From assembly GCA_051008735.1 (NCBI GenBank), contig JBPCXH010000146.1, positions 1 to 51,684 of the forward strand: a DNA stretch of 51,684 nucleotides, in the 5' to 3' direction. Made by a program: the position numbers and the translations under genes. Position 1 is the stretch's first letter, and each line of letters starts with the position of its first letter. The stretch comes from Gammaproteobacteria bacterium. GTDB lineage: Bacteria > Pseudomonadota > Gammaproteobacteria > Steroidobacterales > GCA-2729495. This document shows positions 12,306 through 39,709 of the stretch, piece after piece. Under the pieces are notes generated by a model. It searched no databases and was not told the DNA's origin. It saw only the letters and a list, made by a program, of their open reading frames with translations.

Positions 12306-13181
12306 ATGGCTGAGCCACAGACCGCCGTCGATTCATCCCAGCTAGATATCCGACCCCTGACCGGCGCTCTGGGCTGCGAAATTCTCGGCGTCGACCTGGC
12401 CAATCTTGATGAAGGGACCTGGAAGGCAATCTATCAGGCCTTTCTGGACTACTCCGTCGTCGTGTTCCGGGATCAGGAACTGGACGAGGTCAGCTTTCGC
12501 GACTTTGGCCTGCGTTTCGGCAAGCTGGAGGACGAGCCCTTTCTTCCTAATAAGACGGAAACGCCCGGTATCTATTACTTTGCCGGGGCCGGCGGCACCA
12601 AGAAACTGTCCACCCAGAACCTGGGCTGGCATATGGACCACAGCTATCAGAAAAACCCCAGCCTGGGCGCTGCTTTGTATGCCCTGGACGTACCGGCCAC
12701 CGGGGGCGATACGCTCTTCTCCAGTCACTACGTGTCTTATGAGTACCTGTCAGACATGATGAAAGAGTTTCTGGAGGACAAAATTGCGATCCATGATGTC
12801 CTTCAGTACGGCATGGACTCCGGGCATTACGCCATTTCCTCAGCCGAGGCGCTGGAACGCCTGGCCAAGACCCGCGTTAAATTCCCACAGGTAGAGCATC
12901 CCCTGATCTGCACGCACCCGGAAACAGGGCGCAAGATGCTCTATATCAACAAGGCCTGGGCCACGGCCATCAAGGGCCTGCATGGCGCGGAAAGTAAAGC
13001 CATTCTGGACATGCTTAAGGTCCATTCTCTGCAGGATCGCTTTCAGTGCCGGGTCCGATGGCACAACAAGTCCGTGTTGATCTGGGACAATCGATGCGTG
13101 CAACACAGCCCCAATGTGGATTACGAAGAGCCACGAAAAATGCTCCGCCTGGCCATGCACACGGACTGGATCCCGTCCTGA
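12306..13181 (+). CDS. TauD/TfdA family Fe(II)/2-oxoglutarate dioxygenase
   Basis: 291-aa ORF with GGAGGA upstream. It has WHMDHSY (H-x-D facial triad), GGDTLF and a late WDNRCVQH motif. Confidence 0.85.
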   Translation: MAEPQTAVDSSQLDIRPLTGALGCEILGVDLANLDEGTWKAIYQAFLDYSVVVFRDQELDEVSFRDFGLRFGKLEDEPFLPNKTETPGIYYFAGAGGTKKLSTQNLGWHMDHSYQKNPSLGAALYALDVPATGGDTLFSSHYVSYEYLSDMMKEFLEDKIAIHDVLQYGMDSGHYAISSAEALERLAKTRVKFPQVEHPLICTHPETGRKMLYINKAWATAIKGLHGAESKAILDMLKVHSLQDRFQCRVRWHNKSVLIWDNRCVQHSPNVDYEEPRKMLRLAMHTDWIPS

Positions 13182-13320: not shown

Positions 13321-14454
13321 ATGCCCCTGAGAAACGAAAAGTACTCCAGTAAGGTCACGGGGATGGCCCGTGGTCCAGTCTGGGCAAAACAGAATACAAA
13401 TGGGGTATCTATGAAAGCTCGTAAAGAAGCCGCCGACGGACAGGCTGTTATCAGTCCGGTCGTGGCCAAACTCGCGGCCAAACTGCCGCCAGTGGAAGAC
13501 GCGCGCTTCAGTTTGTATAAAACGCCCGAAGGCTACCGGGCGATCATGAACTGGTACGACGATGCCCTTGAGATGATCCACTGCGATTATGAGTCGCAAT
13601 TCGTCAAGACGCGCTTCGGTCACACACACATGATTGTTGCCGGCGATCCGGAGGCCGAGCCCCTGATTCTGATTCCGGGTGTCGCGGGTTGCGCGCCCCT
13701 GTGGCATCGACAGATACCGGCCCTGGCTGAACATTTCCGCGTCTATGCCCTGGACATTGTCGGCCAGCCGGGCCGCAGTGATCCCTACCCCCCCTCATTT
13801 CTGAACGATGACTACAGCCAATGGCTGTGCGATGTGCTCGATGGGTTGCATATTGATAAAGCCCATTTCGCCGGCACCAGCGTCGGCGGCTGGATCGTCA
13901 TGAAGATGGGCATGCAGGCGCCCGAGCGGGTCAAAAAAATTGTGATGCTCAGCCCCACCGGTGTGTCGCGCGCCCGATTGCCGGTGAAGATCTGGCTGAC
14001 CAAGGTGCTGAACAAGAAAAAAGACGCCAATGAACTTGAAAGCGACCTGACAGCGAAATCGGTTTCATCACGCAGCCCGGGTGACGGCAAAACCTTTGAT
14101 CGACAGCTGGCGCGCCTGATGGCCTTGTGCACCCGCCATTACCGAGTGGATCGTTCCGTCGGGGTCTATAACGAGCAGACTCAGAAGGTGAGCCTGGGGA
14201 CAGGCCTGCGCGTATTGAGGAAGTTTTTCCTGTCGGAACCCAAACGCGAGCTTAGAAAAATGAAAATGCCCAGCCTGCTGGTATTCGGCGAACAGGAAAC
14301 GCTTTATAACCCTATACCTATCGTCAAGCGGGCGAAGAAGATCATTCCACACCTGGAGACAAATATCGTCGCCGGTGCCGGACATGCCGCGATCTATGAT
14401 CGGCCCGAGGATGCCAATCGGATCATTATCGATTTTCTGAGCAAGTCGGCCTGA
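13321..14454 (+). CDS. Alpha/beta hydrolase fold protein
   Basis: It has the GTSVGG nucleophile elbow, LIPGVAG and a late GAGHAA motif. The start is uncertain: alternative ATGs at 13363 and 13411 would remove an atypical N-terminal extension. Confidence 0.75.
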   Translation: MPLRNEKYSSKVTGMARGPVWAKQNTNGVSMKARKEAADGQAVISPVVAKLAAKLPPVEDARFSLYKTPEGYRAIMNWYDDALEMIHCDYESQFVKTRFGHTHMIVAGDPEAEPLILIPGVAGCAPLWHRQIPALAEHFRVYALDIVGQPGRSDPYPPSFLNDDYSQWLCDVLDGLHIDKAHFAGTSVGGWIVMKMGMQAPERVKKIVMLSPTGVSRARLPVKIWLTKVLNKKKDANELESDLTAKSVSSRSPGDGKTFDRQLARLMALCTRHYRVDRSVGVYNEQTQKVSLGTGLRVLRKFFLSEPKRELRKMKMPSLLVFGEQETLYNPIPIVKRAKKIIPHLETNIVAGAGHAAIYDRPEDANRIIIDFLSKSA

Positions 14455-14486
14455 GCCGCTCAAAAGAACGCTGCGGAGGCAGACCC

Positions 14487-15095
14487 ATGAAACTGAATCT
14501 TGATCCGACAAACCGGATTTTCTTTGTCCTGATTGTGAGCCTGATGCCAGCGGCGGTATTCGCTCATGAGGGCGCCAGCCTGCCCTATGGGTCATTTCTG
14601 GCGGGACTGACCCATCCTGTGCTGGGTGCTGATCATTTCCTTGCCATGGTCAGCGTCGGGATTGTCAGCGCGCAAATCGGCGGCCGGGCAATCTGGACCG
14701 TTCCGGCGACTTTCGTCGGTGTCATGGCCTTCGGCGGCCTGCTGGGCTACATGGATATTGGCATGACAGCGATCGAAGCTGGCATAGCCATCTCAGTGCT
14801 TGCCCTGGGTCTCGCCATTGCGGCTGATCGGCGGCTACCGATTTCACTGGTTATGACGACCGTTGGCTTCTTCGCTATTTTCCATGGTTATGCGCACGGC
14901 GCGGAAATGCCCACGGTGGCCAACGCTGTTACCTATTCGCTTGGCTTCATGGCAGGCACCGCCGCGCTGCATGTTGCCGGCGTAATCATCGGCGATATCT
15001 CGCAGCACTATCAGACAGGCAAGCTGATGCTGAGATTTAGCGGAGCAGCCATCGCAGCGACAGGCGCCTACTTCCTGGCCGGCACCGCCGCCTGA
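14487..15095 (+). CDS. HupE/UreJ family metal (Ni/Co) transporter
   Basis: GGAGG lies 8 nt upstream. It has a signal-like N-terminus, the HupE/UreJ signature GLTHPVLGADHFLAMVSVGI and a later FHGYAHG motif. Confidence 0.85.
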   Translation: MKLNLDPTNRIFFVLIVSLMPAAVFAHEGASLPYGSFLAGLTHPVLGADHFLAMVSVGIVSAQIGGRAIWTVPATFVGVMAFGGLLGYMDIGMTAIEAGIAISVLALGLAIAADRRLPISLVMTTVGFFAIFHGYAHGAEMPTVANAVTYSLGFMAGTAALHVAGVIIGDISQHYQTGKLMLRFSGAAIAATGAYFLAGTAA

Positions 15096-15119
15096 TCTGA
15101 GCACCGGGGCACCAAGATA

Positions 15120-15803
15120 ATGAGTACAAAACTGAAACTCGGACTCTGGGAGGCAGGTTGTGTCCTTTTTATCTGCGTAGCAGGATCACTGCTGCATTTC
15201 GCCTTTGAACTCAGCGAATTCTGGACACCGCTGGCACTGATTGCAGCAGTCAACGAAAGTGCGTGGGAACACTCCAAGATGTATTTCTGGCCCGGGCTGC
15301 TTTACGCCGTTGTGCAATACACTTACGTGCGTAATGAGGCTAACAACTACTGGCTGGGGAAAGCCATGGCCCTGGCGATCACGCCCATCGCGATCTTCAG
15401 CACTTACTACGCTTATATGGCCTTTGTCAGTTTCTCTGACGCCAAAGCTTCACTGCCCATCATGCTGGGCATCATGGTTTTCGGCATCAGTTTTGGCCAG
15501 TTCATCAGCTACCGGATTCTGACTGCTGAGCCCATGCGCCCGCAGTTAAGGCGATATGCCCTGCCGGCTTATGCCGTGCTAATCGGCATGTATTCCAGCT
15601 TCACTTTCTTCCCGCCCAAAGTGTTCCTGTTCGAAAACTTCTACTGCTACCAGTACACGGGCGACTACGGAATCCTGCCCGACTACGAGGCCTATCGAGT
15701 GTTTACGCGCCCCGGTGATGAAGCCGAAGGCGGTGGCGTGAACTATTGCGAAGGCGTTGTCGTGAGCAGCCTGGATAAAGAACGCGTCACAGCACTGCGT
15801 TAG
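15120..15803 (+). CDS. Multi-pass membrane protein, DUF6512-like
   Basis: 227-aa hydrophobic ORF. GSLLHFAFELS...AVNESAWEHSKMYFWP resembles the DUF6512 family signature as I remember it. Confidence 0.6.
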   Translation: MSTKLKLGLWEAGCVLFICVAGSLLHFAFELSEFWTPLALIAAVNESAWEHSKMYFWPGLLYAVVQYTYVRNEANNYWLGKAMALAITPIAIFSTYYAYMAFVSFSDAKASLPIMLGIMVFGISFGQFISYRILTAEPMRPQLRRYALPAYAVLIGMYSSFTFFPPKVFLFENFYCYQYTGDYGILPDYEAYRVFTRPGDEAEGGGVNYCEGVVVSSLDKERVTALR

Positions 15804-15829
15804 ACCACGCAGGACGGCACCAAGGCAGT

Positions 15830-16279
15830 TCAGGCAGGCTCCGCCGGAAGCTGCTTGCGCATGATCCCGCCCGCGATCACCGTCCCGATGCCTATACACA
15901 AGGTATCGGCCGTCGCGGCACCCATCAGCGGCACCCAGTTCACCGCACCCCAGCCCGATAAAAAGGTATAGGTGCCAAAGAATCCCGGCAGACAAATCAG
16001 CAAAGTCGCCACGACCGCGCGGCCGAACCACCCGGCAGGCCGTCGCAGCACAATCAGCAGAGCAACGGAAGCCAGCAGGTGGGGCAGAAAGCCCACCGTC
16101 ATTTTCAGAATATTGATGCCGGCTGCGCCGTCCTCACCCATGCGCATAAAGCCATCGAATAGCGGCGTCGCCCAGGGATTGAGAATAAAGGCTGCAATGG
16201 CCCAGTTCAGATTGCTGGCCACCAGGAATCCGGCCACGGTAGCCCCGAGAATTCTCGGCCAGTGCAAACTTGCAGACAT
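15830..16279 (-). CDS. Hypothetical 4-TM membrane protein
   Basis: 149-aa ORF with four hydrophobic segments. I recognise no family. Confidence 0.55.
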   Translation of the reverse strand: MSASLHWPRILGATVAGFLVASNLNWAIAAFILNPWATPLFDGFMRMGEDGAAGINILKMTVGFLPHLLASVALLIVLRRPAGWFGRAVVATLLICLPGFFGTYTFLSGWGAVNWVPLMGAATADTLCIGIGTVIAGGIMRKQLPAEPA

Positions 16280-16307
16280 CCCTATCTCCCTTGATAAATA
16301 ATCGGCT

Positions 16308-17330
16308 TCAGGCTGCGCGCACGCCCGTCATTTCTTCAGAGACTGTCCACAGACGGGCGGCGAGCTCCGGGTCTTCCATGCGGGGATCCGGGACGACGGG
16401 ATTGCAGTCAGCAAAGTAGTAACCCGACATACCCTCCACTAAGGGACTGGCTGCCACATAGGCACTGGTCGCCGCTCCTTCAGGCACATCCTTCATGAAG
16501 GTCCAACCCAACAGATCGGCAAAGAATGTCTGCCACTTCGGGAAATGGCGGCCAAGATTCGTATTGATAATGCCCGGATGAACGGCATTCGCTGTGGCGC
16601 TGGTCTCTTGCAGCCGCCGTGCCAGCTCGAAAGCGAACAAGCCGTTGGCCAGCTTCGACTGCCCGTACATCTGCATCGGGTCGTAGTCACGCTCGCCGCT
16701 GAGATTATCGAACTGGATTCCGCCGTCAGGCGCCCATTGGTGGCCGCTGCTGCTGAGCACCACAATGCGCCCGGCCGGCGCGGCTTTCACACGATCCAGT
16801 AATTCGACCGTCAGGGCAAAATGACCCAGGTGATTCACAAAGAACTGGCGCTCAACGCCATCAACCTGTTCCAGCTCAGGCAAGGCCATGATTCCGGCAT
16901 TCAGAATCAACATGTCGATGGGGGTATCCATTTCGCGCACCTGCTCGGCGCAGCTGGCCACGGAATCCAGATTAGATAACTCAAGTACGGCAGGAGTGGC
17001 CAGGCCGCCGGGGATACTTTCGCAGGCCGTATCCGCCTTCTCGGCTGTCCGCCCGGTGCCGATTACCTTGGCACCGCGCATGGCCAGCACCCGCATGGTT
17101 TCATAGCCCAGGCCGGAATTGGCGCCGGTAATCAGGGCTGTCTTCCCCGTGAGATCGAGCCCCTGAGTGACCTCTTCCGCCGTGGATTCAGGACCAAAAG
17201 GACCCAGCGCTACGCCCGGCGGGCTGACATTGGCGTCGGAACCCGGCTCTGAACAAGCCGTCAATGCGGCGGCGGCTGCCACGGAGGATGCGCCCGCCAG
17301 AAAGCGCCGACGATCAATGGGTGTGGTCAT
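16308..17330 (-). CDS. SDR family oxidoreductase with twin-arginine signal and lipobox
   Basis: The N-terminus MTTPIDRRRFLAGASSVAAAAALTAC combines a Tat motif with a lipobox Cys. SDR motifs are TGANSGLG, NAG and YGQSK. Confidence 0.85.
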   Translation of the reverse strand: MTTPIDRRRFLAGASSVAAAAALTACSEPGSDANVSPPGVALGPFGPESTAEEVTQGLDLTGKTALITGANSGLGYETMRVLAMRGAKVIGTGRTAEKADTACESIPGGLATPAVLELSNLDSVASCAEQVREMDTPIDMLILNAGIMALPELEQVDGVERQFFVNHLGHFALTVELLDRVKAAPAGRIVVLSSSGHQWAPDGGIQFDNLSGERDYDPMQMYGQSKLANGLFAFELARRLQETSATANAVHPGIINTNLGRHFPKWQTFFADLLGWTFMKDVPEGAATSAYVAASPLVEGMSGYYFADCNPVVPDPRMEDPELAARLWTVSEEMTGVRAA

Positions 17331-17448
17331 AGTTCAGGCCTCTGAGCGTAAATCGATGCGTAGTCTAGCCCCAACCCAGCCAGCTTCGCCAACTGAGGTC
17401 GCTCAGGTTTCCCTTGGTCAGAAGGCAAGCCACCGCTAGGATTGCGCC

Positions 17449-19368
17449 ATGAGCTTATTGCGCTTCAGCGACGTGTGCCTGGATTTCGGCGATCAGGTCA
17501 TCCTGCGGGAGGCCAATCTATCGCTGGAGCCGGGCGAACGCGTCTGCCTGGTCGGGCGCAACGGAGCCGGCAAGACGACCTTGCTGAAGCTCATTGCCGG
17601 CACGCTGACACCCGATCAGGGAGAGATCGAGGTGCGCAGCGATTTGCGTGTCAGCCAGCTGGAGCAAACCCTGCCCGGCCAGCTGGATCTGACCACCCGG
17701 GAATTTGTCGCCACGGCCCTGGCCCAGGTACAACAGCTCGTGGATGACTATGAAGCGCGCAGCACCGAGCATCCGGAGGGCCGCGCCCTGCGCGAGCTCG
17801 AGGAACTGCAGCAGCGTATCGATGCCCTGGACGGCTGGCGTCTGGATCAGCGAATTGACACCACCCTGAGCGAACTGGAACTGCCGCCGGACAAACGCCT
17901 GGCCGAGTTATCCGGTGGCTGGCGCCGGCGCGTCAGCCTGGCGCGTGCCCTGGTCACAGACCCTGACCTGTTGCTCCTTGATGAACCCACCAACCACCTG
18001 GACCTGGCCGCTATCAGCTGGCTGGAAGATCGCATCCGTGGCTGGTCTGGCAGCGTTCTGTTCGTCACCCATGACCGGGCTTTCCTGCAGCGACTGGCAA
18101 CTCGCATTGTTGAGCTGGACCGCGGAAAACTGAGCAGTTGGCCTGGCACTTATCACCAATACCTTGAGCGCCGGGCGCTGGCGCTGGCGGCCGAAGAGCG
18201 GGAAGAGCGTGAGTTCGACAAGAAGCTGGCAGGCGAAGAAGTCTGGATCAGGCAAGGCGTCAAGGCTCGCCGAACCCGCAATGAAGGCCGGGTGCGCGCT
18301 TTGCAGGCCATGCGCACCGAGCGTGCCGGAAGACTGGATAAGCCCCAGCAGGCAAGAATCAATATCGGTGAATCCGAGCGTTCCGGCCGCAAGGTAATTA
18401 CCGCCCGGAATGTCAGCTACGGCTACGGCGACACACCGCTGATTAAAGATTTCTCTCTCAAGATCATGCGCGGTGATCGGATTGGTCTGATTGGCAACAA
18501 CGGAGTCGGCAAGAGTACGCTGCTGAAGTTGCTGCTGGGGGAACTGACGCCGCAGACAGGCACCATCAAACTGGGCACCGGCCTGGAAATCGGCTATTTC
18601 GATCAGTTACGCGGCACCCTGGACCTCAATAAGAGTGTGGCGGAAAACGTCGGCGAGGGTCGCGACTATATTCAGATCAATGGCAAAGATCGCCATGTGA
18701 TTGGCTACTTGCGGGGTTTTCTCTTCGGCCCGAAGCGCGCGATGATGCCGGTAAAGGCCCTATCGGGCGGCGAGCGAAACCGGGTTATTCTCGCCAAACT
18801 GTTCACCCGCGCCAGCAATCTGCTCGTTCTTGATGAGCCGACCAATGATCTTGATGTGGAAACGCTGGAGGCCCTTGAGGCCCGTCTGGCTGAGTATCAG
18901 GGCACGCTGATCGTCGTTAGCCATGATCGGGAATTTCTCGACAATGTTGTCACCAGCATCATCGTCTTTGAGGCTGATGGACAGTTGCAGGAGTACGTTG
19001 GCGGCTACAGCGACTGGGCCCGTCGTGGCCGGGAACTGGCAGAAATGGACGACCCCACGGGTCGGGAGCGACGCCGCCAGGCAGCCTTGCGCCGGGCAGA
19101 AAAGCGTCAGACTAAACTCAGCTACAAACAGCAACGCGAACTGACAGAACTGCCTGACCGTATCAGTGACCTGGAAACCCGGATCACCGATTTGCAGACT
19201 GAGATCAGCTCCCCTGACTTTTACGCGCAACCACCGGAAACCACGCAACGCATCCTGGGAGAACTGAGCCAGGCGCAAGTGGCGCTGGAAAGCCACGTCG
19301 AGCAATGGGCAGATCTTGAACAGTTGCAGGAGCAGCTGACCAAAACAGGTCCAAACAGTCAGGGCTGA
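17449..19368 (+). CDS. uup: ABC-F family ATPase Uup
   Basis: 639 aa with two ABC cassettes (GRNGAGKTT, LSGGWRRR / GNNGVGKST, LSGGERNR) and a C-terminal coiled-coil tail. The N-terminus is close to E. coli Uup. Confidence 0.85.
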   Translation: MSLLRFSDVCLDFGDQVILREANLSLEPGERVCLVGRNGAGKTTLLKLIAGTLTPDQGEIEVRSDLRVSQLEQTLPGQLDLTTREFVATALAQVQQLVDDYEARSTEHPEGRALRELEELQQRIDALDGWRLDQRIDTTLSELELPPDKRLAELSGGWRRRVSLARALVTDPDLLLLDEPTNHLDLAAISWLEDRIRGWSGSVLFVTHDRAFLQRLATRIVELDRGKLSSWPGTYHQYLERRALALAAEEREEREFDKKLAGEEVWIRQGVKARRTRNEGRVRALQAMRTERAGRLDKPQQARINIGESERSGRKVITARNVSYGYGDTPLIKDFSLKIMRGDRIGLIGNNGVGKSTLLKLLLGELTPQTGTIKLGTGLEIGYFDQLRGTLDLNKSVAENVGEGRDYIQINGKDRHVIGYLRGFLFGPKRAMMPVKALSGGERNRVILAKLFTRASNLLVLDEPTNDLDVETLEALEARLAEYQGTLIVVSHDREFLDNVVTSIIVFEADGQLQEYVGGYSDWARRGRELAEMDDPTGRERRRQAALRRAEKRQTKLSYKQQRELTELPDRISDLETRITDLQTEISSPDFYAQPPETTQRILGELSQAQVALESHVEQWADLEQLQEQLTKTGPNSQG

Positions 19369-19432: not shown

Positions 19433-20614
19433 TCAGGCTGCTTCATCCTGACTCTGCTTGCGTGCCTCACGGCTGCCCAGCAAAGGCACAGGTTCTACCA
19501 CCCAGTTACCCGCTTCGCGACGGGCCGGACACGGAATAGCGAAGGCTGTCGCCTTATCGTTGCGCCGTTGTAACTCTTCCAGATCTATCCGCCAGCCTTT
19601 CTCATCGAATTTTGCCAGCCAATCACGATAGGCCACGATGGCTTTGTCGGAAGGCGTCAGAACTTCCTTGGTATTACTCAGCGGGGTCATCTTTGGATAG
19701 AGATCCTGAAGAATATCGATGTCCTGCTTGGCAATCGCCTTGTTGCGAGCATGAATAGGCCCATCATTTTCGGGCTCTGGCATGAAATTCCGCATATTCA
19801 GAAAGAAGATCCGGGTATGGCTCTCGCTGACAGGTTGCTCGAAAAAGTACTGACGGAAGCCCACTCCAGGCTGAATGTTGATATTCGTGATAACGGTATT
19901 GGGCCCGTAAGTGCCACCGCCGGCATAAAGGTCGCCACTTTCTTCACGGACATTTTTCCAGGTCTTACCTTTCAGAGGCGGAGCATTGAACTTGTGCATG
20001 AACCACATGCCATAGCCCTGCTTATGATCCTCGACGTCATAGTCATTGACCTTGTAGGTATCACGATTAATACCCGAGAAACCGTGAGTGGGATGTACAA
20101 ATTCGTTGTGCGCCGGGTCCAGCGCATTCTCAACCGAGCGCTCGTAGTAGTAATCCACTTCCAGAACCAGAACCGTGTTGGCGCGCCAGCCTTCGCGACC
20201 ATACTCTTCTACTTCCATTAAGGGCGGGCGCTCCGACTCCGGCAGGTCACCCAAAAATGCAAAGACGATGCCGTATTTTTCCTGCACCGGATACGCATCC
20301 ACCTTGGCGCGGGCCGGAGTCTTGGCCCCATAGCCGATGGACGGGATATTCACGCATTCACCTTTACCGTTGTACTCCCAGCCGTGATACGGACAGACAA
20401 CGCAACCATTAACGATTCGGGGCATATTGTCGGGCCCGGACCAGGCACCGCCCAAGGAGCCGCCGCGGTGAACGCAAGTATCGCTGAGCACACTCGCCTT
20501 GCCTTCTTCATCGCGGAAAGCCACAAAATTCATACCCATGATCGTGACCTTTTCAGGCACGTCGGGACCTAGGTCTTCACTACGGACGATGGGGTACCAG
20601 AAGTTGATATACAT
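19433..20614 (-). CDS. Rieske [2Fe-2S] non-heme iron oxygenase, alpha-subunit type
   Basis: 393 aa with the Rieske motifs CVHRGGSL...CPYHGWEY and the mononuclear iron motif DPAHNEFVH (D-x2-H-x4-H). Confidence 0.9.
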   Translation of the reverse strand: MYINFWYPIVRSEDLGPDVPEKVTIMGMNFVAFRDEEGKASVLSDTCVHRGGSLGGAWSGPDNMPRIVNGCVVCPYHGWEYNGKGECVNIPSIGYGAKTPARAKVDAYPVQEKYGIVFAFLGDLPESERPPLMEVEEYGREGWRANTVLVLEVDYYYERSVENALDPAHNEFVHPTHGFSGINRDTYKVNDYDVEDHKQGYGMWFMHKFNAPPLKGKTWKNVREESGDLYAGGGTYGPNTVITNINIQPGVGFRQYFFEQPVSESHTRIFFLNMRNFMPEPENDGPIHARNKAIAKQDIDILQDLYPKMTPLSNTKEVLTPSDKAIVAYRDWLAKFDEKGWRIDLEELQRRNDKATAFAIPCPARREAGNWVVEPVPLLGSREARKQSQDEAA

Positions 20615-23967: not shown

Positions 23968-26241
23968 TTACAGACACATACCGCCGTCAACATGCATCGT
24001 GGTGCCACTGATAAAGGTACTGCGTTCTGAGATCAAATAGGCTGCCGCCTCACCCGCATCATGCTCGGGATCACCAAAGCGGCCCACGTGATGTTTGGCA
24101 GCATTTTTCTCCTGCATGGCGGGCATGGCTTCCATAAACTGCATTGCCTTTTCAGTTTCAAAGACTCCGAATAACAGTGTATTGATACGAATCCCCTGGC
24201 GGGAGTACTCCAGAGCTGCCGCCTGGGTCAGACCCTCGACCGCCAGCTTCGACGCAATATAGGGAGCCATGCGCATACCTGTATCGCGAGTCGCTCCCGA
24301 GCTGATATTGATAATCGAATAATTATCGCCCGTCGTCGCGCCCTGCTCCAGGAACTGTTTGATGGCAAACCGCATGCCCAGATAAGTGCCGGTAACATTA
24401 GTTGTCATGACCTGTTCAAAGCTCTCCAGCGATTCGTCCGCCAGCAACTGGAAGTCTCCCGGAAAAACTGCATTATTGATTATCGCGTCGAGCCGCCCGA
24501 ATTTATCCACGGCAAACTTCACGACAGCCTCGTTATCAGCCTCGCTGCAAATATCCATCTTGAAATAGGCAACATTACTCGCATCACAGCCTGCCGCTTT
24601 TACCAATCGGCCAAGTGCCTCCTCACCCGTATCTGCATTGCGACTCGTGATAACCACTTTCGCGCCGTATTTAGCCAGCCTTGTCGCCATGCCAAAACCG
24701 ATACCCATGGTGCCACCGGTGACAATTACTACTTTCTGATCGAGTTCTTTGTTGTTTTCCATGCCCAGTCCTTTTGATTCTTTACGTTTGGCCATTTTTG
24801 GCTTGGGTTGTGAGCCATCGCTCGCGGGCGCACTCCCCCCGTTCTGTTTAGCCTGCAGCTCCTCAAGCAGAGCAACAGTCACAAAATTACTGCCGTTCTC
24901 TTTTGCTGCTTTTTCAGCATTCTTGATAATCATGGGCTGCACAAAGCCAGGCGCCTTCTCAACAATCGCCAGGGCCTTGTCTTCCCACTCCATTGTCGCC
25001 TTGGATTTTGCATCGCGGGGCACAACCGGTTCCGATTTTCCGTAATCTTTCGATCGCGTCGGCTCGATACTATCGATATCCACAAAGTGCAAATCTTTCA
25101 CCGAGACAACATTTGATTCGCCTATCGGAATCCGCGCCATGGCGGGATAAACCCAGCCGTCCGGACTGGCTTTGCGATTCGGAGAGGGAATGATGCGCAC
25201 CTCGTGCTCCGGATCTTTCAGCTTCGATCGATCAAGCTGCCAGCCCTTGTTCCGCATGATTTCCATCAGCCCCCAGTAGGTCAGCATGATCTGGTCCTCA
25301 TCCTGCGTATAGACGCCATTTGGATTAGGGCCTTCGGGAGCGAACACTGGCCGTTGCGATTCGGCTAAGTCTTTATCCTGGTGAACATTCTGTAAATTTC
25401 GACGAGTATGCTCGGCATCGAACTCATCTTCCATTCGATAGTTGCGGAAAAACAAGTGCCGCATCACCGTTCGATGCTCATCAATCGGTGTCGTGAACTC
25501 GTAAAAGAGATTGAACGTCCCGGATCCGACTCCGCCTATCTCAACCTGACCGCTCAGGGTCAAACCGGGCACGAAGAACTTCATAACCGATTCAACTTCA
25601 GTCCCTTTTTCACGCAACTCTGACCAGACACCCTCACTGGGCTTTGGTTTCGGCCGCATCACTGACCGAAAACCATGCTCCGTTGAGGTAATGGTGCGCG
25701 GCGGCGGTTGAATCGGATTCTCTGTCCCCTGGAACATGATGCCGTGAACAACCGGCAAATGAACGGGATCCAGATTCGTGAATTTGCAGGTGTGGTAGTC
25801 GGCTTCCCAGATCTCCTCATTGGTAGTGCTTTTCCATTGCTCGTCACCCCATTCAGGGATATCGAAGATGGGGGAAGCCGCATCCGGATCATCACCGAGG
25901 CAGACCCAGATGCAACCGTATTTTTCTTCCGTGGCATAAGCATCGGTTCGCATACGAGGCGCAACCACCTGCGCCTCATGATCCCGACGTGACGGGACCA
26001 GCGTGCAGTCACCTTTGCCGTTGAAGCGATAACCATGGAAAGGGCAGGCCAGCGTGCCATCCTTATAAAGACAGCCTTCCGCCAGGCTCGAACCCCGGTG
26101 TGGACAAACATTACTGATACAACACGGTGTCCCGTCTGCTTCACGAAACAGCACAAGATCGGCACCCAGCATCCTGACCTTGATTGGTTCGTTGGTCAGG
26201 TCCTTACTGAAACCTGCGACGTACCAGACGTTCGTATACAA
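23968..26241 (-). CDS. Tri-domain fusion: Rieske non-heme oxygenase + PCP_red-like domain + SDR
   Basis: The TTG start at 26241 has AGGAG 7 nt upstream. Residues 1-345 carry CPHRGSSL...CPFHGYRF and DPVHLPVVH. Residues 416-466, MEWEDKALAIVEKAPGFVQPMIIKNAEKAAKENGSNFVTVALLEEL, resemble the PCP_red domain (BchB/ChlB C-terminus). Residues 502-757 carry the SDR motifs TGGTMGIG, NNAV and YIASK. The reading frame is continuous. Confidence 0.85.
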   Translation of the reverse strand: MYTNVWYVAGFSKDLTNEPIKVRMLGADLVLFREADGTPCCISNVCPHRGSSLAEGCLYKDGTLACPFHGYRFNGKGDCTLVPSRRDHEAQVVAPRMRTDAYATEEKYGCIWVCLGDDPDAASPIFDIPEWGDEQWKSTTNEEIWEADYHTCKFTNLDPVHLPVVHGIMFQGTENPIQPPPRTITSTEHGFRSVMRPKPKPSEGVWSELREKGTEVESVMKFFVPGLTLSGQVEIGGVGSGTFNLFYEFTTPIDEHRTVMRHLFFRNYRMEDEFDAEHTRRNLQNVHQDKDLAESQRPVFAPEGPNPNGVYTQDEDQIMLTYWGLMEIMRNKGWQLDRSKLKDPEHEVRIIPSPNRKASPDGWVYPAMARIPIGESNVVSVKDLHFVDIDSIEPTRSKDYGKSEPVVPRDAKSKATMEWEDKALAIVEKAPGFVQPMIIKNAEKAAKENGSNFVTVALLEELQAKQNGGSAPASDGSQPKPKMAKRKESKGLGMENNKELDQKVVIVTGGTMGIGFGMATRLAKYGAKVVITSRNADTGEEALGRLVKAAGCDASNVAYFKMDICSEADNEAVVKFAVDKFGRLDAIINNAVFPGDFQLLADESLESFEQVMTTNVTGTYLGMRFAIKQFLEQGATTGDNYSIINISSGATRDTGMRMAPYIASKLAVEGLTQAAALEYSRQGIRINTLLFGVFETEKAMQFMEAMPAMQEKNAAKHHVGRFGDPEHDAGEAAAYLISERSTFISGTTMHVDGGMCL

Positions 26242-26575
26242 CTTCAGCTCCTGTTTATGAAGAAAGCTCAGCGGACCCCGGGTTGAGTAATCTCAGGTAT
26301 TTCTTTGCGGCCCTGCATACCCAGACGGGTCGCTTTTTTAAACCTGATACTCCAAGGAGGCTGGTTTGGATAATAAAGCACAGCGGGCATTGCGGGTCCA
26401 ATCGCATAGCATCGGTGTTGCTCGAGCAGCCACCGGGGTGCCGATAGTTGCCCTGAAATGCGTGTCCGGAACGGTATGAACGCTGTGCGGTTCGCGACAA
26501 CCGGATCTGTTGTTTCGCGAGCGATCCGACGCTTGTCATTAACAGCGGGAAGAGGCCGGAGAACCCCGGCCTGCG

Positions 26576-26896
26576 TTACTTGGCTTTGGCGGTATTCGCT
26601 TTAGCAGCATTCGCCTTAGCGGCATTGGATTTGCTGCTGCTCAGGTGCACCCGACCGCGCTTGCCGGAACGACGCTCGTTCAGGTCCGCGACGATCACCT
26701 TGGCTGCTTTTGTAACAGCAGTTCGTGAACCCTTCTTGTAGCCCGTTATGGTGTTGTCACCCTGCACTATGGTGTAACGGCACCACTGCCCGGTATCACC
26801 TTCCGACGGTGCTTTTGTCTTTTCGACTTCCTGCAGCTGGTAAGGCTGGCCCAGGTTAGGGGCTTCAGCGGCGGCTGTGGCAGTGCGACGGGGCAT
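26576..26896 (-). CDS. Small basic protein with C-terminal (N/T)AAKA pentapeptide repeats
   Basis: 106-aa ORF with AAGGAGAG upstream of the ATG. The C-terminus is SSSKSNAAKANAAKANTAKAK, encoded by 15-nt tandem units. I recognise no family. Confidence 0.6.
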   Translation of the reverse strand: MPRRTATAAAEAPNLGQPYQLQEVEKTKAPSEGDTGQWCRYTIVQGDNTITGYKKGSRTAVTKAAKVIVADLNERRSGKRGRVHLSSSKSNAAKANAAKANTAKAK

Positions 26897-27137: not shown

Positions 27138-28685
27138 CTAGCCCGCCAGCGGAACAGCGTCAAACGCAATGCTGATGCGGGATTCAGCGCTGGTAAAGGG
27201 CAAGGTCCGATGCCAGAAGTAGGAAGGAAATATGACCAGTCCGTCGGGAACCGGCTGAACGGCCCGGGCAGGCGGCGGTGCCTGGCTGGCCAGGCGCTCG
27301 GGCAGGCAGCCGAACTCCAGCCAGCCCGCCTGGCTACCCGCGGCCTGCATGTCGGCCGGCAAACTCAGGTAATACACGCCGCTGACAAAGCCCAGGGGAT
27401 GCTGATGGGGCGCCTGGTGCCCGCCGGCATCAAGCACCGTGCCCCAGGCGCGCAAGGTCCAGCGCCCGGTGTCATAAGCCATAACCGGATGATTGCCCAG
27501 ACCTGCGGCGCGCCAGGCAACAAGAGTGGCCTGCACCGCCTCGTCAAACAGGCTGCCCAGGGCAATCAGGGCGGGTGAACTGCTCAGGTCCAGCTCCCCC
27601 GTCTGCCGCCCGCCGCGCGTGGCTTTGCTGGCCGGCTCGGCCAGCAGGGATTCATCGTTCAGCAAGATCTCAATCAGCGCGGCGCGAAATTCTTTTGCCT
27701 CCGCGAAACCTGCCGGCGTCGGCGGTTGATGAACCTGTATCAGGCGGTCCAGGTCAACGAGATCGTCAGCCTGCTCAGTCTGACCGGCATCCCGCAAGGC
27801 AATGGCCCGGGAGGCCAGCACCAGACGCTCACCCGGGTGGCGCTCAAGGAAGGCATCGCACAGCTGCAAAGCGGTGGCCGTGTCGCCGCCGACCGACAAC
27901 AGGTTTGCCAGATCCGCCGCTGCCCGGGCATTGTCAGGATTCTGCTCGCAAGCGCGGCGCAGCGCGCCGACAGCCGCCGTGGTCTCGCCCTGCGAGTTAT
28001 ACGCCTGACCCAGGTTTGTCCAGGCCATGTCATCTTCAGGATGTTTCCCGGTGGCCTGCTGTAAACACTCCACGGCTGCAGCGGCCTGCCCCAGACCCAG
28101 CAACACAGCGCCTTTGGCGGCGAGCAAATAAGGATGCCCGGCCGCGAGAGACAGGGCCGCCTCGCATTCGGCAAGAGCCTCTTCGCCCCGCCCGGCGTCC
28201 ATGAGCGTGCTGGCCAGATTACAGCGTACCTCCAGATCATTCGGCTGGCGCTGCAGCACCTCGCGGTGACAGTCAGCGGCCGCATGCAATCGGCCGCGGT
28301 ACTGCAACAGCGCGCCGAGATTCGCCCAGGCTCGCACCGAGTCAGCATCCAGCGCCAGGGCAGCGCGCAAAGCGATCTCGGCAGGCCCCAGCTCACCTTG
28401 GGCAAAACAGGCAAGCGCGAGTTCATTGAGGGGCGCCGCGTCGTCCGGCGCCGCTGCACAGGCGCGATCGAGCAAGTCCCGGGCACTCTGCGCATCACCC
28501 TGATCACGGGCCAAAGCCCCCGCCAGCCGGAGCGCCTGGGCATGTTCAGGCGACTGCTTCAACACCTGCTGGTACAACTGGGCAGCGATCTCAACAGCCC
28601 CGTCGCGGTGGGCAGCCATGGCCTCGTCGAGGAGTGTCTGGGTATCCGGGGCGGCAGGGTCCATGGTGCGATTGCTTTTAGTCAA
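27138..28685 (-). CDS. TPR-repeat protein with C-terminal 2OG-Fe(II) oxygenase-like domain (TIGR02466/PF13759-like)
   Basis: 515 aa with multiple TPR units in residues 15-300. The C-terminus has HQAPHQHPLGFVSGVYYL...LVIFPSYFWHRT..., matching the putative 2OG-Fe(II) oxygenase family. Confidence 0.8.
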   Translation of the reverse strand: MTKSNRTMDPAAPDTQTLLDEAMAAHRDGAVEIAAQLYQQVLKQSPEHAQALRLAGALARDQGDAQSARDLLDRACAAAPDDAAPLNELALACFAQGELGPAEIALRAALALDADSVRAWANLGALLQYRGRLHAAADCHREVLQRQPNDLEVRCNLASTLMDAGRGEEALAECEAALSLAAGHPYLLAAKGAVLLGLGQAAAAVECLQQATGKHPEDDMAWTNLGQAYNSQGETTAAVGALRRACEQNPDNARAAADLANLLSVGGDTATALQLCDAFLERHPGERLVLASRAIALRDAGQTEQADDLVDLDRLIQVHQPPTPAGFAEAKEFRAALIEILLNDESLLAEPASKATRGGRQTGELDLSSSPALIALGSLFDEAVQATLVAWRAAGLGNHPVMAYDTGRWTLRAWGTVLDAGGHQAPHQHPLGFVSGVYYLSLPADMQAAGSQAGWLEFGCLPERLASQAPPPARAVQPVPDGLVIFPSYFWHRTLPFTSAESRISIAFDAVPLAG

Positions 28686-36663: not shown

Positions 36664-38724
36664 CTAAACCGACTGGCCGATTCCAGCTTTGGCTTTGGAG
36701 TCAGATGCCCCGACCTGTTCGCGCAGCAATTCAACCAGGGACTCCTGTCCCAGGCCTTCACGCTCTATCAGCCCGACAACACCGCCGTTCAAGCGACGAC
36801 GGTCGTCCTCTGTCACATCCTTGGCTGTCACCACTACGATAGGGACCTGGCGCGTCGTATCCTGCTGGCGCATTTCCAGTACAAAATCAAAGCCGTCCAT
36901 CACGGGCATCATCAGGTCCAGCAAAATCAGCGAAGGCAACTCGCTGGCGACTTCATCCAGGGCAACTTGACCGTTTTCGGCTTCGCTAACACGCCAACCT
37001 TCATTTTCCAGCACGCGCCGCAGCACTTCGCGATTCTCCGGCTTGTCATCAACCACCAGGGCGTGCCCGATATCACCACTCGCGTAACGGCCGAGTAAAC
37101 CAACCAGCTGATCGCGTCGCACAGGCTTGGTCAGAAATTCATTTGCACCCAGGGTGTAACCCAGGTTCCGATCGTTAGTCATGGTCACCATGATGACCGG
37201 TATGTCGCGCGTGGCGGCATCGGCTTTCAATTCACTCAGAACTTCCCAGCCATCCATTCCAGGCATCAGCACATCCAGAGTGATCGCAGCCGGCTTTAAC
37301 TCGCGCGCCAGGGCCAGCGCCTCCTGACCGTCAGTGGCAGTCACCACACGCAGCCCCGCACCCGTAACCGTGCGGTCCAACAGTTCCAGCGCTACCGGGT
37401 CGTCGTCAATCACCAGCACAACCGGACCCTCGCCAGGCTCTTTTACCGCTGCATTAGACGCGTCCGTGACTATCTCTTCTTCCGCCGCTTCAACCACCAT
37501 CACCGGTAGCTGAATCGTGAAGGTTGAGCCTTTTCCGGACTTACTGGAAACAATGATTTCACCGCCCATCATGCGGCAAAAACGTCGACTGATCGGCAGA
37601 CCAAGTCCGGTCCCCCCGTAATTTCGGGTCGTGCTGTCATCTGCCTGGGAAAATTCTTCAAACACGCGGTCAATTTTGTCCGGCGGGATACCGATCCCGG
37701 AATCCGACACGGACATTTCCACCCAGCTCTCGCCATCGATCTGTGTTGCCAGCACTTTCAGGCCTATCTCACCTTCGTGGGTGAATTTCGCCGCATTGCT
37801 GAGCAGATTAAACAGAGCCTGACGGACCTTGGTAACGTCGGCGTGCATTTCGCTGAGGGTGGGATCCACCTGTACGGAGAGCCGGTTGCCATTCTTTTTC
37901 ACTAATGTGTCAATCGTCGACACAACACCGTCAACGAGTTCCCCGACCCCGAAGGTCTCCAGGTACATCTCCATCTTGCCCGCTTCGATCTTTGACAAAT
38001 CGAGCACGTCATTGATCAGTGATAACAAGTGCATCCCGGCACTGTGAATTTTCTTCAGGTCGCCAACAGCCGACTCATTGCCGTCGTCTTCCGCCTCCTC
38101 CATCAACATTTCGCTGTAGCCGATAATTGCGTTCATCGGTGTCCTCAGCTCATGGCTCATATTGGCGAGAAAACCACTCTTGGCCCGATTGGCATCTTCC
38201 GCAGACTCCATCGCCTCCTTTAGCTCTTCGGTGCGCAGGGCAACCGTCTGCTCCAGCGCCGCACTGTGCTGCTCGAGTTCCCGGTTTTTCTGCTGAATCT
38301 CCGTCATCAGCTCTTCACGAGCGAGGGCCTGAATACGCTTGCGTTGCTCGGCAACGAAGGCATCATCTATTTGCAGGCGCGCAGTTGGCAGTCGCTTGGC
38401 CACGCGCACGCCCTGATAACCGTTTTCGGTCTTCTCAGCTGTGGAATCAAAGAATCCCCCCAGCCCGATGAGTTCGGGCATCCTGTCGCGAGCCTCAAAC
38501 ACGAGGATCACTTGCGGCGGAGATTGTTCGACCGACAGCCCCACGGCTATGCGCGGATCCTGGCACTGACCCTGTAGAGCTCGAGCCGCTTCACTCACAG
38601 CAATTGCCAGGCGGGTAACCTCAACACCGCTGTAGCCCAGCGAATGGGCCAGGCTGCGCATTTTGCTACGCGCATCATAGATCGCCGTCTGATGCCCCAG
38701 CCCGATGTAACCCAGCTCAATCAT
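36664..38724 (-). CDS. Hybrid sensor histidine kinase with two receiver domains and an unusual N-terminal domain
   Basis: 686 aa with the H-box [17 protein letters not shown] and HATPase motifs ([23 protein letters not shown]). REC1 has [12 protein letters not shown] and REC2 has [12 protein letters not shown]. No TM segment and no HPt domain. The first ~125 aa resemble a degenerate RsbW-type domain. Confidence 0.9.
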
Positions 38725-39320
38725 TCGCCGTACCGTATGGCAATGCAGGCGGAATCGTCATGACTTTTGCCGAATCGATCCAGTACCGCCCTTACCACCG
38801 ATTCCGGAGGGTGGCTGCGAACGCTGGGGTAATCCTCAGAGGAGAATCGATCGCTTACCCCATCGGTATAAAGCAGAATCAAATCGCCTGACTGAAGCTT
38901 CAAAGACTGGTGCAGCGGCGTGCGCATGTTCTGGCCAACGATGCCGTCCTTGGACACCAGGCGGGTTTCTGACTCGCCAAAACAGCGAATACTGGTATTG
39001 CCAATGCCAACGTAGTCAATCATGCCCTGCTCTGTGTTGACGGCACACAAACCCACGGCAGCACCCCGCGTACCCTGCAGATGCTTATGCAGACGCGGCA
39101 TGAGCGCAGCCACATCCAAGGTTGCGTGCCGCTCGAGGAATGTATCGATGACGTGCGTCAGCTCATGCGCTTCGGGGCCATGGCCCAGTACGTCAACTAT
39201 CGCAACGAACAGGCCATCATCCAGGGGCCGCACGACGACGGCGTCTCCGCTCACGGTTTCCCCCATGCAGGGCCTGAGCAGGCTGGCATGAGATAGTTTT
39301 CCGTTAGCCTTCATATCCAT
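38721..39320 (-). CDS. PP2C/SpoIIE-type serine phosphatase, RsbX-like (single domain)
   Basis: 199 aa with [11 protein letters not shown]...AIVDVLGHG...LYTDGVSD. It overlaps the HK start by 4 nt. Confidence 0.85.
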
Positions 39321-39709
39321 TTGCGAGCCGTGACCCGGGTGCCTTCACCGGGCGCGGATTCGAGCGTGAATTCATCCATCATGCGTTTGACGCCCGGTAA
39401 TCCCATTCCCAGAGTGCCGCCCGAGCTGAAATTGTCCTGCATAGCCTGCTCAGTATCGGGAATGCCAGGCCCGTGATCAGACACCTGCATTTCTATACCA
39501 TGGCCGCTGGGCCGCTTCACACGACGCAACAGAAAATCGCCTGAACCAGCGTATTTGAGAATATTGCGCCCGAGCTCGGAAACCGCGGTGGCAATCATTC
39601 GACTCGGCGCCTCATCAAAGCCAGCTTCTTGCGAATAGAGCGTTGACTCAAGAACAACTCGACGCAGATCCATTTCGCTGCGAATTTTTCGGCGTAATTC
39701 GGCGCTCAT
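39311..39709 (-). CDS. RsbT-like serine/threonine kinase (anti-sigma regulatory factor, GHKL fold)
   Basis: 132 aa with AVSELGRNILKYA (N-box), DHGPGI (G1) and GGTLGMGLPGVKR (G2). It overlaps neighbours by 10 and 4 nt. Confidence 0.85.
   Translation of the reverse strand: MSAELRRKIRSEMDLRRVVLESTLYSQEAGFDEAPSRMIATAVSELGRNILKYAGSGDFLLRRVKRPSGHGIEMQVSDHGPGIPDTEQAMQDNFSSGGTLGMGLPGVKRMMDEFTLESAPGEGTRVTARKWI

Follow-up and report, generated by a model that had tools for sequence, protein, structure and literature searches.

The 51,684-nucleotide stretch of DNA analysed here (the window) carries on its minus strand a single gene in which a Rieske oxygenase, a PCP_red domain and an SDR are joined in one chain. 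We consider it likely that this gene encodes a bifunctional enzyme performing an oxygenation and then an NADP(H)-dependent oxidoreduction on one substrate, that its N-terminal 470 residues are an alpha-only Rieske non-haem-iron mono-oxygenase (VanA/KshA/DdmC/SxtT-like) carrying a C-terminal PCP_red domain, and that the architecture arose when a conserved pair of adjacent, translationally coupled genes was joined by read-through. As proposed in a preliminary description of this DNA, the frame is uninterrupted over 757 codons, from a TTG start preceded by AGGAG to a stop at 23968-23970; the start position is common to all homologs, which begin M/V-Y-T-N-V-W-Y. The three module assignments made in that description (Rieske oxygenase, PCP_red-like segment and SDR) all hold by their Pfam scores, and four modules of the 757-aa product, namely Rieske, VanA_C, PCP_red and SDR, exceed the curated Pfam thresholds. 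The gene has the following features.

23968..26241, minus strand: oxygenase-PCP_red-SDR fusion ORF (Pfam domains and fused homolog clusters)
26248..26252, minus strand: Shine-Dalgarno AGGAG, 6 nt 5' of the TTG (direct reading of the sequence)
25981..26226, minus strand: Rieske [2Fe-2S] domain, residues 6-87, ligands C46, H48, C66 and H69 (PF00355 and invariant ligands)
25126..25869, minus strand: non-haem-iron catalytic domain of the VanA_C type, approximately residues 125-372 (PF19112, invariant columns and Foldseek)
25012..25125, minus strand: family-specific spacer, residues 373-410, with G-x2-E-P-V-x-P-x-D before PCP_red (invariant residues)
24844..25011, minus strand: PCP_red domain, residues 411-466, with three helices (421-429, 435-448 and 456-468) (PF08369, models and fold matches)
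24751..24843, minus strand: linker, residues 467-497, NGGSAPASDGSQPKPKMAKRKESKGLGMENN (base-for-base alignment with the split locus L058)
24760..24774, minus strand: relic internal start, as judged by alignment, consisting of AAAGGA (24774-24769), a 6-nt spacer and the ATG of M494 (24762-24760)
23971..24750, minus strand: classical SDR module, residues 498-757 (Pfam, PDB match 5jy1 and invariant residues)

The claim that the protein contains a Rieske oxygenase with both [2Fe-2S] and iron motifs is borne out by scores and by conservation. The Rieske domain scores 75 bits against a PF00355 cut-off of 20.3, is modelled with a pLDDT of 87-95, and its ligands (C46-x-H48 and C66-x2-H69) show no variation across the family. 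The catalytic domain matches VanA_C over residues 157-302 (35.9 bits against a cut-off of 23.5) and is modelled with moderate confidence (pLDDT 46-75). Its mononuclear iron motif, of the 2-His-1-carboxylate kind with a bridging Asp beside the first His (N156-x-D158-x2-H161-x4-H166 together with D289), does not vary within the family, and D158, H161 and H166 remain invariant when distant phthalate-family sequences are added to the alignment; D289 is, by its position, a candidate third iron ligand. With the oxygenase part as query, the top 50 Foldseek matches are all two-domain Rieske oxygenases, with a Rieske domain and a helix-grip catalytic domain (E-values of 7e-19 to 1e-14), including SxtT/GxtA, DdmC, NdmA and KshA, and sequence searches return the same relatives. 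The oxygenases of a paralog and of a sister family end at approximately residue 372. The spacer that follows in the fusion protein has the invariant residues G401, E404, P405, V406, P408 and D410 and is modelled with moderate confidence, with block means of about 51-90 and a minimum at residues 404-408.

Likewise, the complete SDR expected from the motifs TGGTMGIG, NNAV and S...YxxxK was recovered. Residues 503-755 score 147 bits with adh_short (PF00106) and 165 bits with adh_short_C2 (PF13561), and none of the 53 sequences compared, fused or split, departs from T508-G-G-x-x-G513-x-G515, N589-N-A-V592, N615, S647, Y661 or K665. The cofactor motif of the window protein reads T508-G-G-T-M-G-I-G515, and the N-S-Y-K catalytic tetrad (N615, S647, Y661 and K665) is complete. 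S533-R534 after beta2 suggest NADP(H) as the cofactor, and the C-terminal 260 residues are, therefore, probably an NADP(H)-dependent classical SDR. Among structures in the PDB, the best match is 5jy1 (133 bits), while TsaC scores 110 bits. The best NCBIfam models of named SDR equivalogs are below their cut-offs (PRK06172 with 193 against 336 bits and glucose 1-dehydrogenase with 192.5 against 215 bits), and judged by its sequence the module is of the generic classical type. It has no flavin or Fe-S site and is of the cofactor-only classical type.

How the two halves came to be joined can be read from their relatives. At least 11 related genomes have a gene of 468-486 aa for the oxygenase with PCP_red and, directly after it, a separate, orthologous SDR gene of 264-275 aa (SDR orthology >460 bits), with gaps that range from a 14-nt overlap (-14) to +53 nt and include overlaps of the ATGA type (split loci L001/L029, L002/L021, L007, L012, L016, L023, L024, L026, L028, L031 and L058/L059). 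What is now the linker of the fusion protein was once the 3' end of the oxygenase gene, the spacer between the genes and the opening codons of the SDR gene: two indels of 1 nt each and a TAG stop set it apart from the gene tail, stop and Shine-Dalgarno-bearing spacer of L058, and the split form at L012 is a single indel away from the fused linker. Thus, the Rosetta-stone pattern is present in full, with orthologous units that are separate and adjacent in relatives and a linker that is homologous to the region between the genes. M494 aligns with the start codons of separate SDR genes (e.g. MENNKELDGK in L021) and on this alignment is the ancestral SDR start codon. The suspicion in the preliminary description that M494 might be an independent start is, accordingly, right as to its origin, and a purine-rich Shine-Dalgarno-like element before M494 has been kept in all fused loci examined; by contrast, no stop or frameshift separates the halves. 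This retained element and its ATG could mean that part of the SDR is still made as a free protein.

Because one or two nucleotides separate the two states, it has to be weighed whether a mistake in sequencing or assembly has erased a stop or frameshift and so merged two genes, and the short distances to the L058-type split and to L012 speak for such an artefact. Against it, the frame is open in approximately 46 clusters from four independent data sources (ENA, JGI, Logan and NCBI) that comprise independent metagenomes, the linker sequences have diverged with indels in multiples of three only, and the cluster identical to the window protein (P0001, 100% identity) has 13 member sequences, with approximately 45 further fused clusters at 74-84% identity. 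With this number of independent clusters, the uninterrupted frame is not a collapsed frameshift, and we regard an artefact as scarcely credible. The 757-codon fusion is a real gene of aquatic bacteria that have not been cultured. The family of fused and unfused oxygenase-PCP_red proteins is restricted to uncultured aquatic Gammaproteobacteria, and the annotations that its members have at present go no further than “SDR family oxidoreductase” or “Rieske 2Fe-2S domain-containing protein”. Rfam returned no match anywhere in the window, and a promoter and terminator scan around the fusion gene gave nothing above shuffled expectation.

Fused and unfused forms are about equally represented, with approximately 46 fused and 43 unfused protein clusters. 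A first reading of a neighbour-joining (NJ) tree, which is poorly resolved at these distances, pointed to several independent fusions; against this reading, approximately 40 fused clusters have one common conserved linker. The sequences rather argue for one main fusion, followed by re-splits (L012 and P0049/L058), besides P0003, which is fused through a different linker. The common linker together with the in-frame indels also suggests that the fused state is maintained. These points matter for a reading in which the fusion brings no catalytic coupling: the two genes would have no more than their regulation in common, and the fusion would be a neutral read-through, tolerated either as the SDR is still largely translated from M494 or as it acts independently on another intermediate of the pathway. 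The ease with which fused and split states interconvert (1-2 nt changes, with both states common), the conservation of the Shine-Dalgarno-like element and ATG at M494, and the complete lack of the adjacent SDR in some lineages are all consistent with this reading, and we consider it unlikely rather than remote. What counts against it is the maintenance of the linker described above and the fact that adjacency, overlap and fusion of one orthologous pair recur across many species, a classic signature of a functional link. Because the halves are adjacent and often overlapping as separate genes in relatives, the suggestion that the fusion represents a self-contained two-step pathway receives strong support at the level of sequence.

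Basal members of the family, as well as some crown lineages, are unfused and have PCP_red with no adjacent SDR, and in 4 species an oxygenase-PCP_red gene was found without a nearby SDR. Coupling is, therefore, not obligatory, and the SDR is probably a later pathway partner and not the electron donor of the oxygenase. PCP_red belongs to the oxygenase and is older than the association with the SDR. As a result, an evolutionary series from a stand-alone oxygenase through the addition of PCP_red and of an adjacent SDR to the fusion is documented, down to the nucleotide changes that made the linker.

The middle segment of approximately 50 aa had been compared with PCP_red, and this identification is confirmed by profile and by fold. 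PF08369 matches residues 419-461 with 40.5 bits against a cut-off of 32.5 (E-value 2.8e-10, 43 of 45 profile positions), its core is invariant, and the domain is present in all family members. A separate model of residues 401-470 has a pLDDT of 81, and its best two PDB matches are 2KRU (TM 0.61/0.67), an NMR structure of the PCP_red domain from BchB (DPOR subunit B), and 2L09 (TM 0.62/0.69), the stand-alone PCP_red protein asr4154 of Nostoc; owing to the small size of the domain, these matches have weak E-values (1e-2 to 6e-2). To our knowledge, PCP_red has until now been described solely as the cap at the C-terminus of DPOR subunit B. In an exhaustive phmmer search, PCP_red-like domains were also found in Usp, rubredoxin-like and radical-SAM (radical SAM/SPASM) proteins, including tandem arrays; a search for homologs that used only the aligned PCP_red segment returned just 8 fragments, and literature searches on PF08369/PCP_red, IPR013580 and the PCP reductase family returned nothing relevant. 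PCP_red is a promiscuous helical module that is widespread in unrelated proteins, and its presence is, therefore, no pointer to a chlorophyll or tetrapyrrole ligand, so that the chlorophyll link implied by the earlier comparison is not supported.

A tetrapyrrole-directed enzyme, in which PCP_red would cover a (proto)chlorophyllide-like macrocycle while the Rieske and SDR modules modify or degrade chlorophyll-derived pigments, can nevertheless be envisaged by analogy. Relatives of each of the three modules take part in chlorophyll metabolism, with plant PaO and CAO being Rieske enzymes and chlorophyll b reductase and LPOR being SDRs; moreover, PCP_red is authentic by profile and fold, and the hosts are aquatic heterotroph-like Gammaproteobacteria. 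Against this stand the absence of the PaO domain and of LPOR-like and chlorophyll-b-reductase-like SDRs among the matches, the absence of chlorophyll and haem genes from the conserved neighbourhood, the tandem repetition of PCP_red-like domains in proteins of many contexts (Usp, rubredoxin-like and radical-SAM), and the scores with the DPOR equivalogs, which are 19.8 bits against 490 for TIGR01278 and 23.9 bits against 509 for NF002789 and cover only the last ~50 model residues. We consider a tetrapyrrole substrate highly improbable.

For the Rieske cluster, we suggest that electrons would come from a reductase whose gene lies at another place in the genome. As the preliminary description had remarked, no reductase is encoded nearby: no FNR/PDR-type reductase or ferredoxin gene is present among the scanned window ORFs (most ORFs of at least 90 aa), and neither is conserved near the gene across 26 loci. 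The only flavoprotein found among the scanned window ORFs, 11051-12166 (Pyr_redox_2), was rejected as a ferredoxin reductase, as it scores 421 bits with TIGR03169 and 40 against 450 bits with HcaD. With a custom PCP_red HMM, no second PCP_red gene was detected in the window, nor within 10 kb of the gene in any locus except L002/L021, where one organism has a Flavin_Reduct-PCP_red gene (in L021, 7.5 kb from the oxygenase gene). As a recurrent partner this protein was rejected, because it is not repeated among ten matching-size PCP_red representatives (~256-309 aa), which consist of three PCP_red domains, in some cases with rubredoxin-like domains added, and are not flavin reductases; we keep it as a low-probability reading.

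The missing reductase and the protein in L021, as well as the frequent redox function of similar PCP_red carriers (rubredoxin-like, radical SAM/SPASM and DPOR), would fit an unconventional electron supply, in which PCP_red, alone or together with the SDR, brings in a reductase or takes its place, by docking a PCP_red-bearing flavin reductase or by relaying NAD(P)H electrons, and no classical PDR/ferredoxin system is needed. We judge this very unlikely. SDR chemistry is a two-electron hydride transfer, this SDR lacks a flavin or Fe-S binding site, the PCP_red domain of the family has no Cys or His cluster motif, the Flavin_Reduct-PCP_red protein is confined to one organism, and for many Rieske oxygenases, such as KshA and SxtT, the reductase is not encoded alongside. 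Electron delivery through the SDR, as raised earlier, is in particular not supported, given that the oxygenase with PCP_red occurs without an adjacent SDR.

In the bifunctional enzyme that we favor, two active sites would work consecutively on one substrate. The oxygenase may hydroxylate or oxidatively demethylate a small, probably hydrophobic or aromatic/alicyclic compound, and the SDR would next oxidise or reduce the resulting alcohol or carbonyl. The conserved neighbours in the 26 loci are just a TetR gene and a loosely associated UbiD-family gene, with no pathway or transporter genes. The TetR gene is directly upstream in 10 species-level loci and is lacking at the window copy; a TetR-type repressor would thus control the unit in many relatives, which suggests a substrate-inducible catabolic or detoxifying function. 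BchB uses its C-terminal helix to cover the substrate cavity of DPOR, and by analogy with this role PCP_red may here close off an active site like a lid or offer a surface for docking. A further, distinctly unlikely, idea is that PCP_red is a general, hitherto unrecognised docking or lid module of redox enzymes that in this family recruits a partner for the Rieske oxygenase (e.g. an L021-like PCP_red flavin reductase) in a new manner or organises trimer-dimer super-assemblies with the SDR; if so, the fusion would be a self-organising oxygenase-dehydrogenase machine with non-canonical electron input. The occurrence of PCP_red in Rieske, flavin-reductase, Usp, rubredoxin-like and radical-SAM settings makes a generic lid or docking function open to experiment. 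It is rare in nature for a Rieske oxygenase to be covalently fused to the enzyme that follows it in a pathway, and an oxygenation/dehydrogenation cascade in a single chain is appealing for biocatalysis. Discovery of the substrate would give a function to a recurrent marine gene.

In agreement with the preliminary description, PDB sequence and fold searches and literature searches, including those for a Rieske + SDR fusion protein, returned no characterised enzyme with this architecture. Its individual parts resemble known systems. The alpha-only (homotrimeric) mono-oxygenases (SxtT/GxtA, the dicamba monooxygenase DdmC, NdmA/NdmB, KshA, VanA and guaiacol O-demethylase) have the same CxH...CxxH and N-x-D-x2-H-x4-H motifs, a C-terminal Asp and the same two-domain fold (Foldseek E-values of 7e-19 to 1e-15, TM 0.6-0.73 on the target); they use separately encoded reductases, a dependence that the fusion protein would share. 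However, identity to them is only about 17-23%, with about 20-25% for the closest characterised oxygenases, and they lack the C-terminal extension of ~100 residues ending in PCP_red and the covalently joined SDR. The PCP_red domains of DPOR BchB/ChlB (2KRU, 30% identity) and of stand-alone asr4154 (2L09) have the same three-helix fold, whereas here the domain, known from profile and fold, follows a Rieske oxygenase and is not on a nitrogenase-like subunit.

The logic proposed for the fusion also has precedents. In bacterial sterol C-4 demethylation, the Rieske oxygenase SdmA and the NADP-dependent SDR-type reductase SdmB catalyse consecutive steps (PMC10202945). As we propose for the fusion, a Rieske enzyme and an NAD(P)-dependent SDR-type enzyme thus act consecutively on one substrate; however, SdmA and SdmB are two separate proteins, and no sterol-synthesis genes are near the fusion gene. 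SdmA is the best NCBIfam match for the oxygenase half, although the score with NF052579 is 70.3 bits against a cut-off of 600 and the alignment covers only the Rieske domain (residues 3-130), which does not place the protein in this full-length equivalog. TsaM/TsaC, a toluenesulfonate methyl-monooxygenase and an SDR alcohol dehydrogenase, and dioxygenase/cis-dihydrodiol dehydrogenase pairs such as BenABC/BenD follow the same order of Rieske oxygenation and SDR dehydrogenation. In contrast to the fusion, the enzymes of these pairs are individual chains, and their operons include a reductase gene devoted to them; the SDR of the fusion, for its part, looks NADP(H)-type, and the likeness is one of logic. 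Finally, a further comparison is with the sister family of 371-394 aa Rieske/VanA_C proteins in marine Gammaproteobacteria (e.g. P0236-P0311 and the Woeseia MAGs L032-L035), which is 45-54% identical across residues 1-372, carries the same motifs, lacks PCP_red and the fusion, and is uncharacterised as well. In one abundant member, an overlapping SDR gene directly follows the oxygenase gene. At 25% identity over 92 aa, this SDR (L053) was rejected as an ortholog of the window SDR, and its independent recruitment beside a sister-family oxygenase shows that such oxygenases repeatedly team up with an SDR.

The fusion gene encodes a genuine, recurrent bifunctional enzyme made by fusing an oxygenase-PCP_red gene to its downstream SDR partner. 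The frame and the three modules named in the preliminary description were recovered, all Pfam domains scoring above their curated thresholds:

23968-26241, minus strand: fusion gene, 757 codons, TTG start
Residues 6-87: Rieske domain, 75 bits
Residues 157-302: VanA_C, 35.9 bits
Residues 419-461: PCP_red, 40.5 bits against a gathering score of 32.5
Residues 503-755: adh_short and adh_short_C2, 147 and 165 bits

By sequence reading, an AGGAG lies 6 nt 5' of the TTG, and the start position (M/V-Y-T-N-V-W-Y) is common to every homolog. In the family alignment, the Rieske ligands C46/H48/C66/H69 do not vary, the iron motif N156-x-D158-x2-H161-x4-H166 is constant, and the invariant D289 is likely the third iron ligand. 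The SDR motifs (TGGxxGxG 508-515, NNAV 589-592, N615/S647/Y661/K665) show no variation across 53 sequences, both fused and split; by the standard SDR cofactor rules, S533-R534 right behind beta-strand 2 suggests specificity for NADP(H). No part of the window is lower in G+C than the fusion-gene region (24001-26000; 0.525, compared with 0.60-0.61 across the flanking 26-32 kb), where the GC skew is also strongly negative (-0.119).

In a search of 5.8 billion proteins, we found ~46 clusters of ~757 aa with identical architecture and 74-84% identity to the window protein, drawn from ENA, JGI, Logan and NCBI assemblies. At the level of the family, the single frame is not the product of a collapsed stop or frameshift, because the linkers of these ~46 clusters vary in sequence and carry in-frame indels only. 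Each of the 46 loci taken from the species-representative genome collection belongs to a MAG, with no isolate among them; these MAGs come from marine and lake samples, and most carry the label Gammaproteobacteria, Chromatiales or Chromatiaceae. No description of the Rieske-PCP_red-SDR architecture was found in the literature searched, in line with the earlier statement that no characterized enzyme of this kind is known. The family is an uncharacterized bifunctional enzyme, for which NCBI has just the generic names "SDR family oxidoreductase" and "Rieske 2Fe-2S domain-containing protein".

The same search returned ~43 clusters of 468-486 aa with Rieske, VanA_C and PCP_red and without the SDR. 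In their loci, an orthologous SDR gene (264-275 aa; >460 bits to the SDR half of the window protein) lies directly 3' on the same strand, and the two genes overlap by up to 14 nt or are separated by up to 53 nt, one overlap being ATGA. The start codons of the separate SDR genes fall exactly on M494 in the alignment with the window protein (GLG-MENNKELDQK in the window and MENNKELDGK in the split locus L021), and a purine-rich Shine-Dalgarno-like element 6-9 nt 5' of this codon is kept in all fused genes examined. In a split locus found on two independent contigs (L058/L059), the oxygenase is 84% identical to that of the window. Apart from two 1-nt indels and the stop, the window linker can be matched base for base to the tail, TAG stop and 20-nt spacer of this oxygenase gene. 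On these three lines of sequence comparison, linker residues 467-497 are the old gene tail plus intergenic DNA. The preliminary description had raised Met 494 as a possible independent start; its correspondence to the SDR start codons and the retained element mark it as the ancestral SDR start, but the frame stays open. The linker pattern KPKM(A/V)KRK...KG..M in nearly all fused forms points to one main fusion event; it overrides an NJ tree that was initially taken to show many independent fusions. L012 and P0049/L058 look like re-split forms, and P0003 is a fused form with an unrelated linker.

Neither PCP_red nor the SDR is present in a large sister family (oxygenases of 371-394 aa, 45-54% identical), and no SDR lies nearby in three basal PCP_red-bearing members (L025, L027 and L057). 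The oxygenase therefore gained PCP_red first; the SDR arrived beside it later, and fusion was the last step. Two crown members (L010, L019) likewise lack a nearby SDR. The SDR beside an abundant sister-family oxygenase is not orthologous to that of the window; this independent recruitment lends support to the idea that products of such oxygenases commonly need an NAD(P)-dependent next step. The window itself holds a paralog 3.4 kb downstream of the fusion gene:

19433-20614, minus strand: stand-alone Rieske/VanA_C oxygenase, 393 aa, without PCP_red or SDR

It is 29% identical over fusion residues 1-364 and stops at the same point as the sister-family proteins. L046 suggests a similar paralog in the closest related MAG, the source of L006.

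The resemblance of the middle segment to PCP_red of subunit B of the protochlorophyllide reductase complex (DPOR) extends to its fold. The two best PDB matches of a model of residues 401-470 (pLDDT 81) are this domain (2KRU; 30% identical) and a stand-alone PCP_red protein (2L09). An exhaustive phmmer search of 1.84 billion representatives with residues 405-470 gave 108 significant matches, many with 2-7 tandem copies, and Pfam scans of these matches found arrays joined to Usp, rubredoxin-like (RUBY_RBDX) and radical-SAM/SPASM domains. In L021 (1694-2524; = L002 9-524), a 276-aa protein combines Flavin_Reduct with a C-terminal PCP_red, 7.5 kb from the same MAG's oxygenase-PCP_red/SDR pair. Given these arrays and this protein, PCP_red is a promiscuous three-helix module and no chlorophyll marker. 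By analogy, we infer that it may form a lid over an active site or a docking surface here. Separately, P0131-P0234, proteins of 120-1150 aa with tandem PCP_red-like arrays (2-7 copies), look like an undescribed repeat-protein class. The Flavin_Reduct-PCP_red protein was found in one organism only, with no counterpart found in the window or any other locus; a C-factor-type SDR gene (L021 2529-3239) follows it.

As noted previously, no reductase is encoded nearby: no FNR/PDR-type reductase or ferredoxin is present among the window ORFs scanned, and no reductase among the recurrent neighbors in 26 loci. At 40 bits vs 450 for the HcaD model, the sole flavoprotein among these ORFs (11051-12166, minus strand) was rejected as a ferredoxin reductase; it belongs to TIGR03169 instead (421 bits). 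This "Nterm_to_SelD" pyridine-nucleotide-disulfide oxidoreductase, a family usually discussed in the context of selenium (SelD), adjoins a TauD-family dioxygenase (12306-13181); no SelD gene was found among the scanned ORFs. The fusion had been proposed to reflect either two steps on one substrate or an unconventional electron route. As the oxygenase-PCP_red protein also occurs alone, the SDR cannot be the obligatory donor. In addition, an SDR that binds only its cofactor works by hydride transfer and lacks a one-electron carrier, so that a route through it is unsupported. The closest structural relatives of the oxygenase (SxtT/GxtA, DdmC, NdmA/B, KshA and guaiacol O-demethylase) all use separate reductases, making a partner reductase encoded elsewhere the default expectation.

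When all ORFs within 10 kb were clustered in 26 loci, the only recurrent neighbors were the SDR, a TetR regulator (found in 10 loci, immediately upstream; absent from the window) and, in six loci, a UbiD-family (prenyl-FMN decarboxylase-like) gene, 2.5-7.6 kb from the oxygenase gene in varying position and orientation:

UbiD-family loci: L003 1376-3073; L013; L014; L026; L029 (11052-12545 in L001); L031 9496-11127, with a Tat-like signal at its start (RRELLAVGGSLAAL)

That many relatives are under TetR control, and that MFS transporters lie close to genes of the sister family, fits a role in inducible small-molecule catabolism or detoxification. DUF1838 genes and MFS transporters lie near the PCP_red-family locus L002 (1329-2417, 13814-14677) and the sister-family locus L053 (1-853), which could reflect shared pathway context or lineage synteny only. 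In L003, a carotenoid gene set (14150-18277; FA_hydroxylase/CrtZ-like, phytoene synthase, phytoene desaturase, lycopene cyclase) lies 4 kb 3' of the fused gene; the other loci do not share it. The window also holds a partner-switching module (36664-44733; STAS, HATPase_c_2 anti-sigma-type kinase, SpoIIE phosphatases, PAS-STAS protein, hybrid histidine kinase) 10-18 kb from the fusion gene, and a similar HATPase_c_2/STAS/response-regulator-SpoIIE trio (L055 11131-13179) lies 3 kb from the sister-family oxygenase in L055/L056. Upstream of the fusion gene are:

27138-28685, minus strand: 515 aa, N-terminal TPR array and C-terminal 2OG-Fe(II)_Oxy_5, ~0.9 kb upstream
26576-26896: 106-aa Ala/Lys-rich ORF without a family match, between the 27138-28685 gene and the fusion gene

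Adjacency, overlap and fusion are the classic signature of a functional link, and the gene organization fits two active sites that would carry out two steps on one substrate. The identity of this substrate, or a real mechanistic role of PCP_red in partner docking, would add to the interest of the family. The oxygenase half is ~20-25% identical to any characterized enzyme; its best NCBIfam match, the sterol C-4 methyl oxidase SdmA, reaches 70 bits vs a cut-off of 600 and aligns over the Rieske domain only. The SDR half is generic (best PDB match 5jy1, 133 bits; TsaC, 110 bits). Functional analogues include TsaM/TsaC and dioxygenase/cis-diol dehydrogenase pairs. SdmA/SdmB are likewise functional analogues (PMC10202945).
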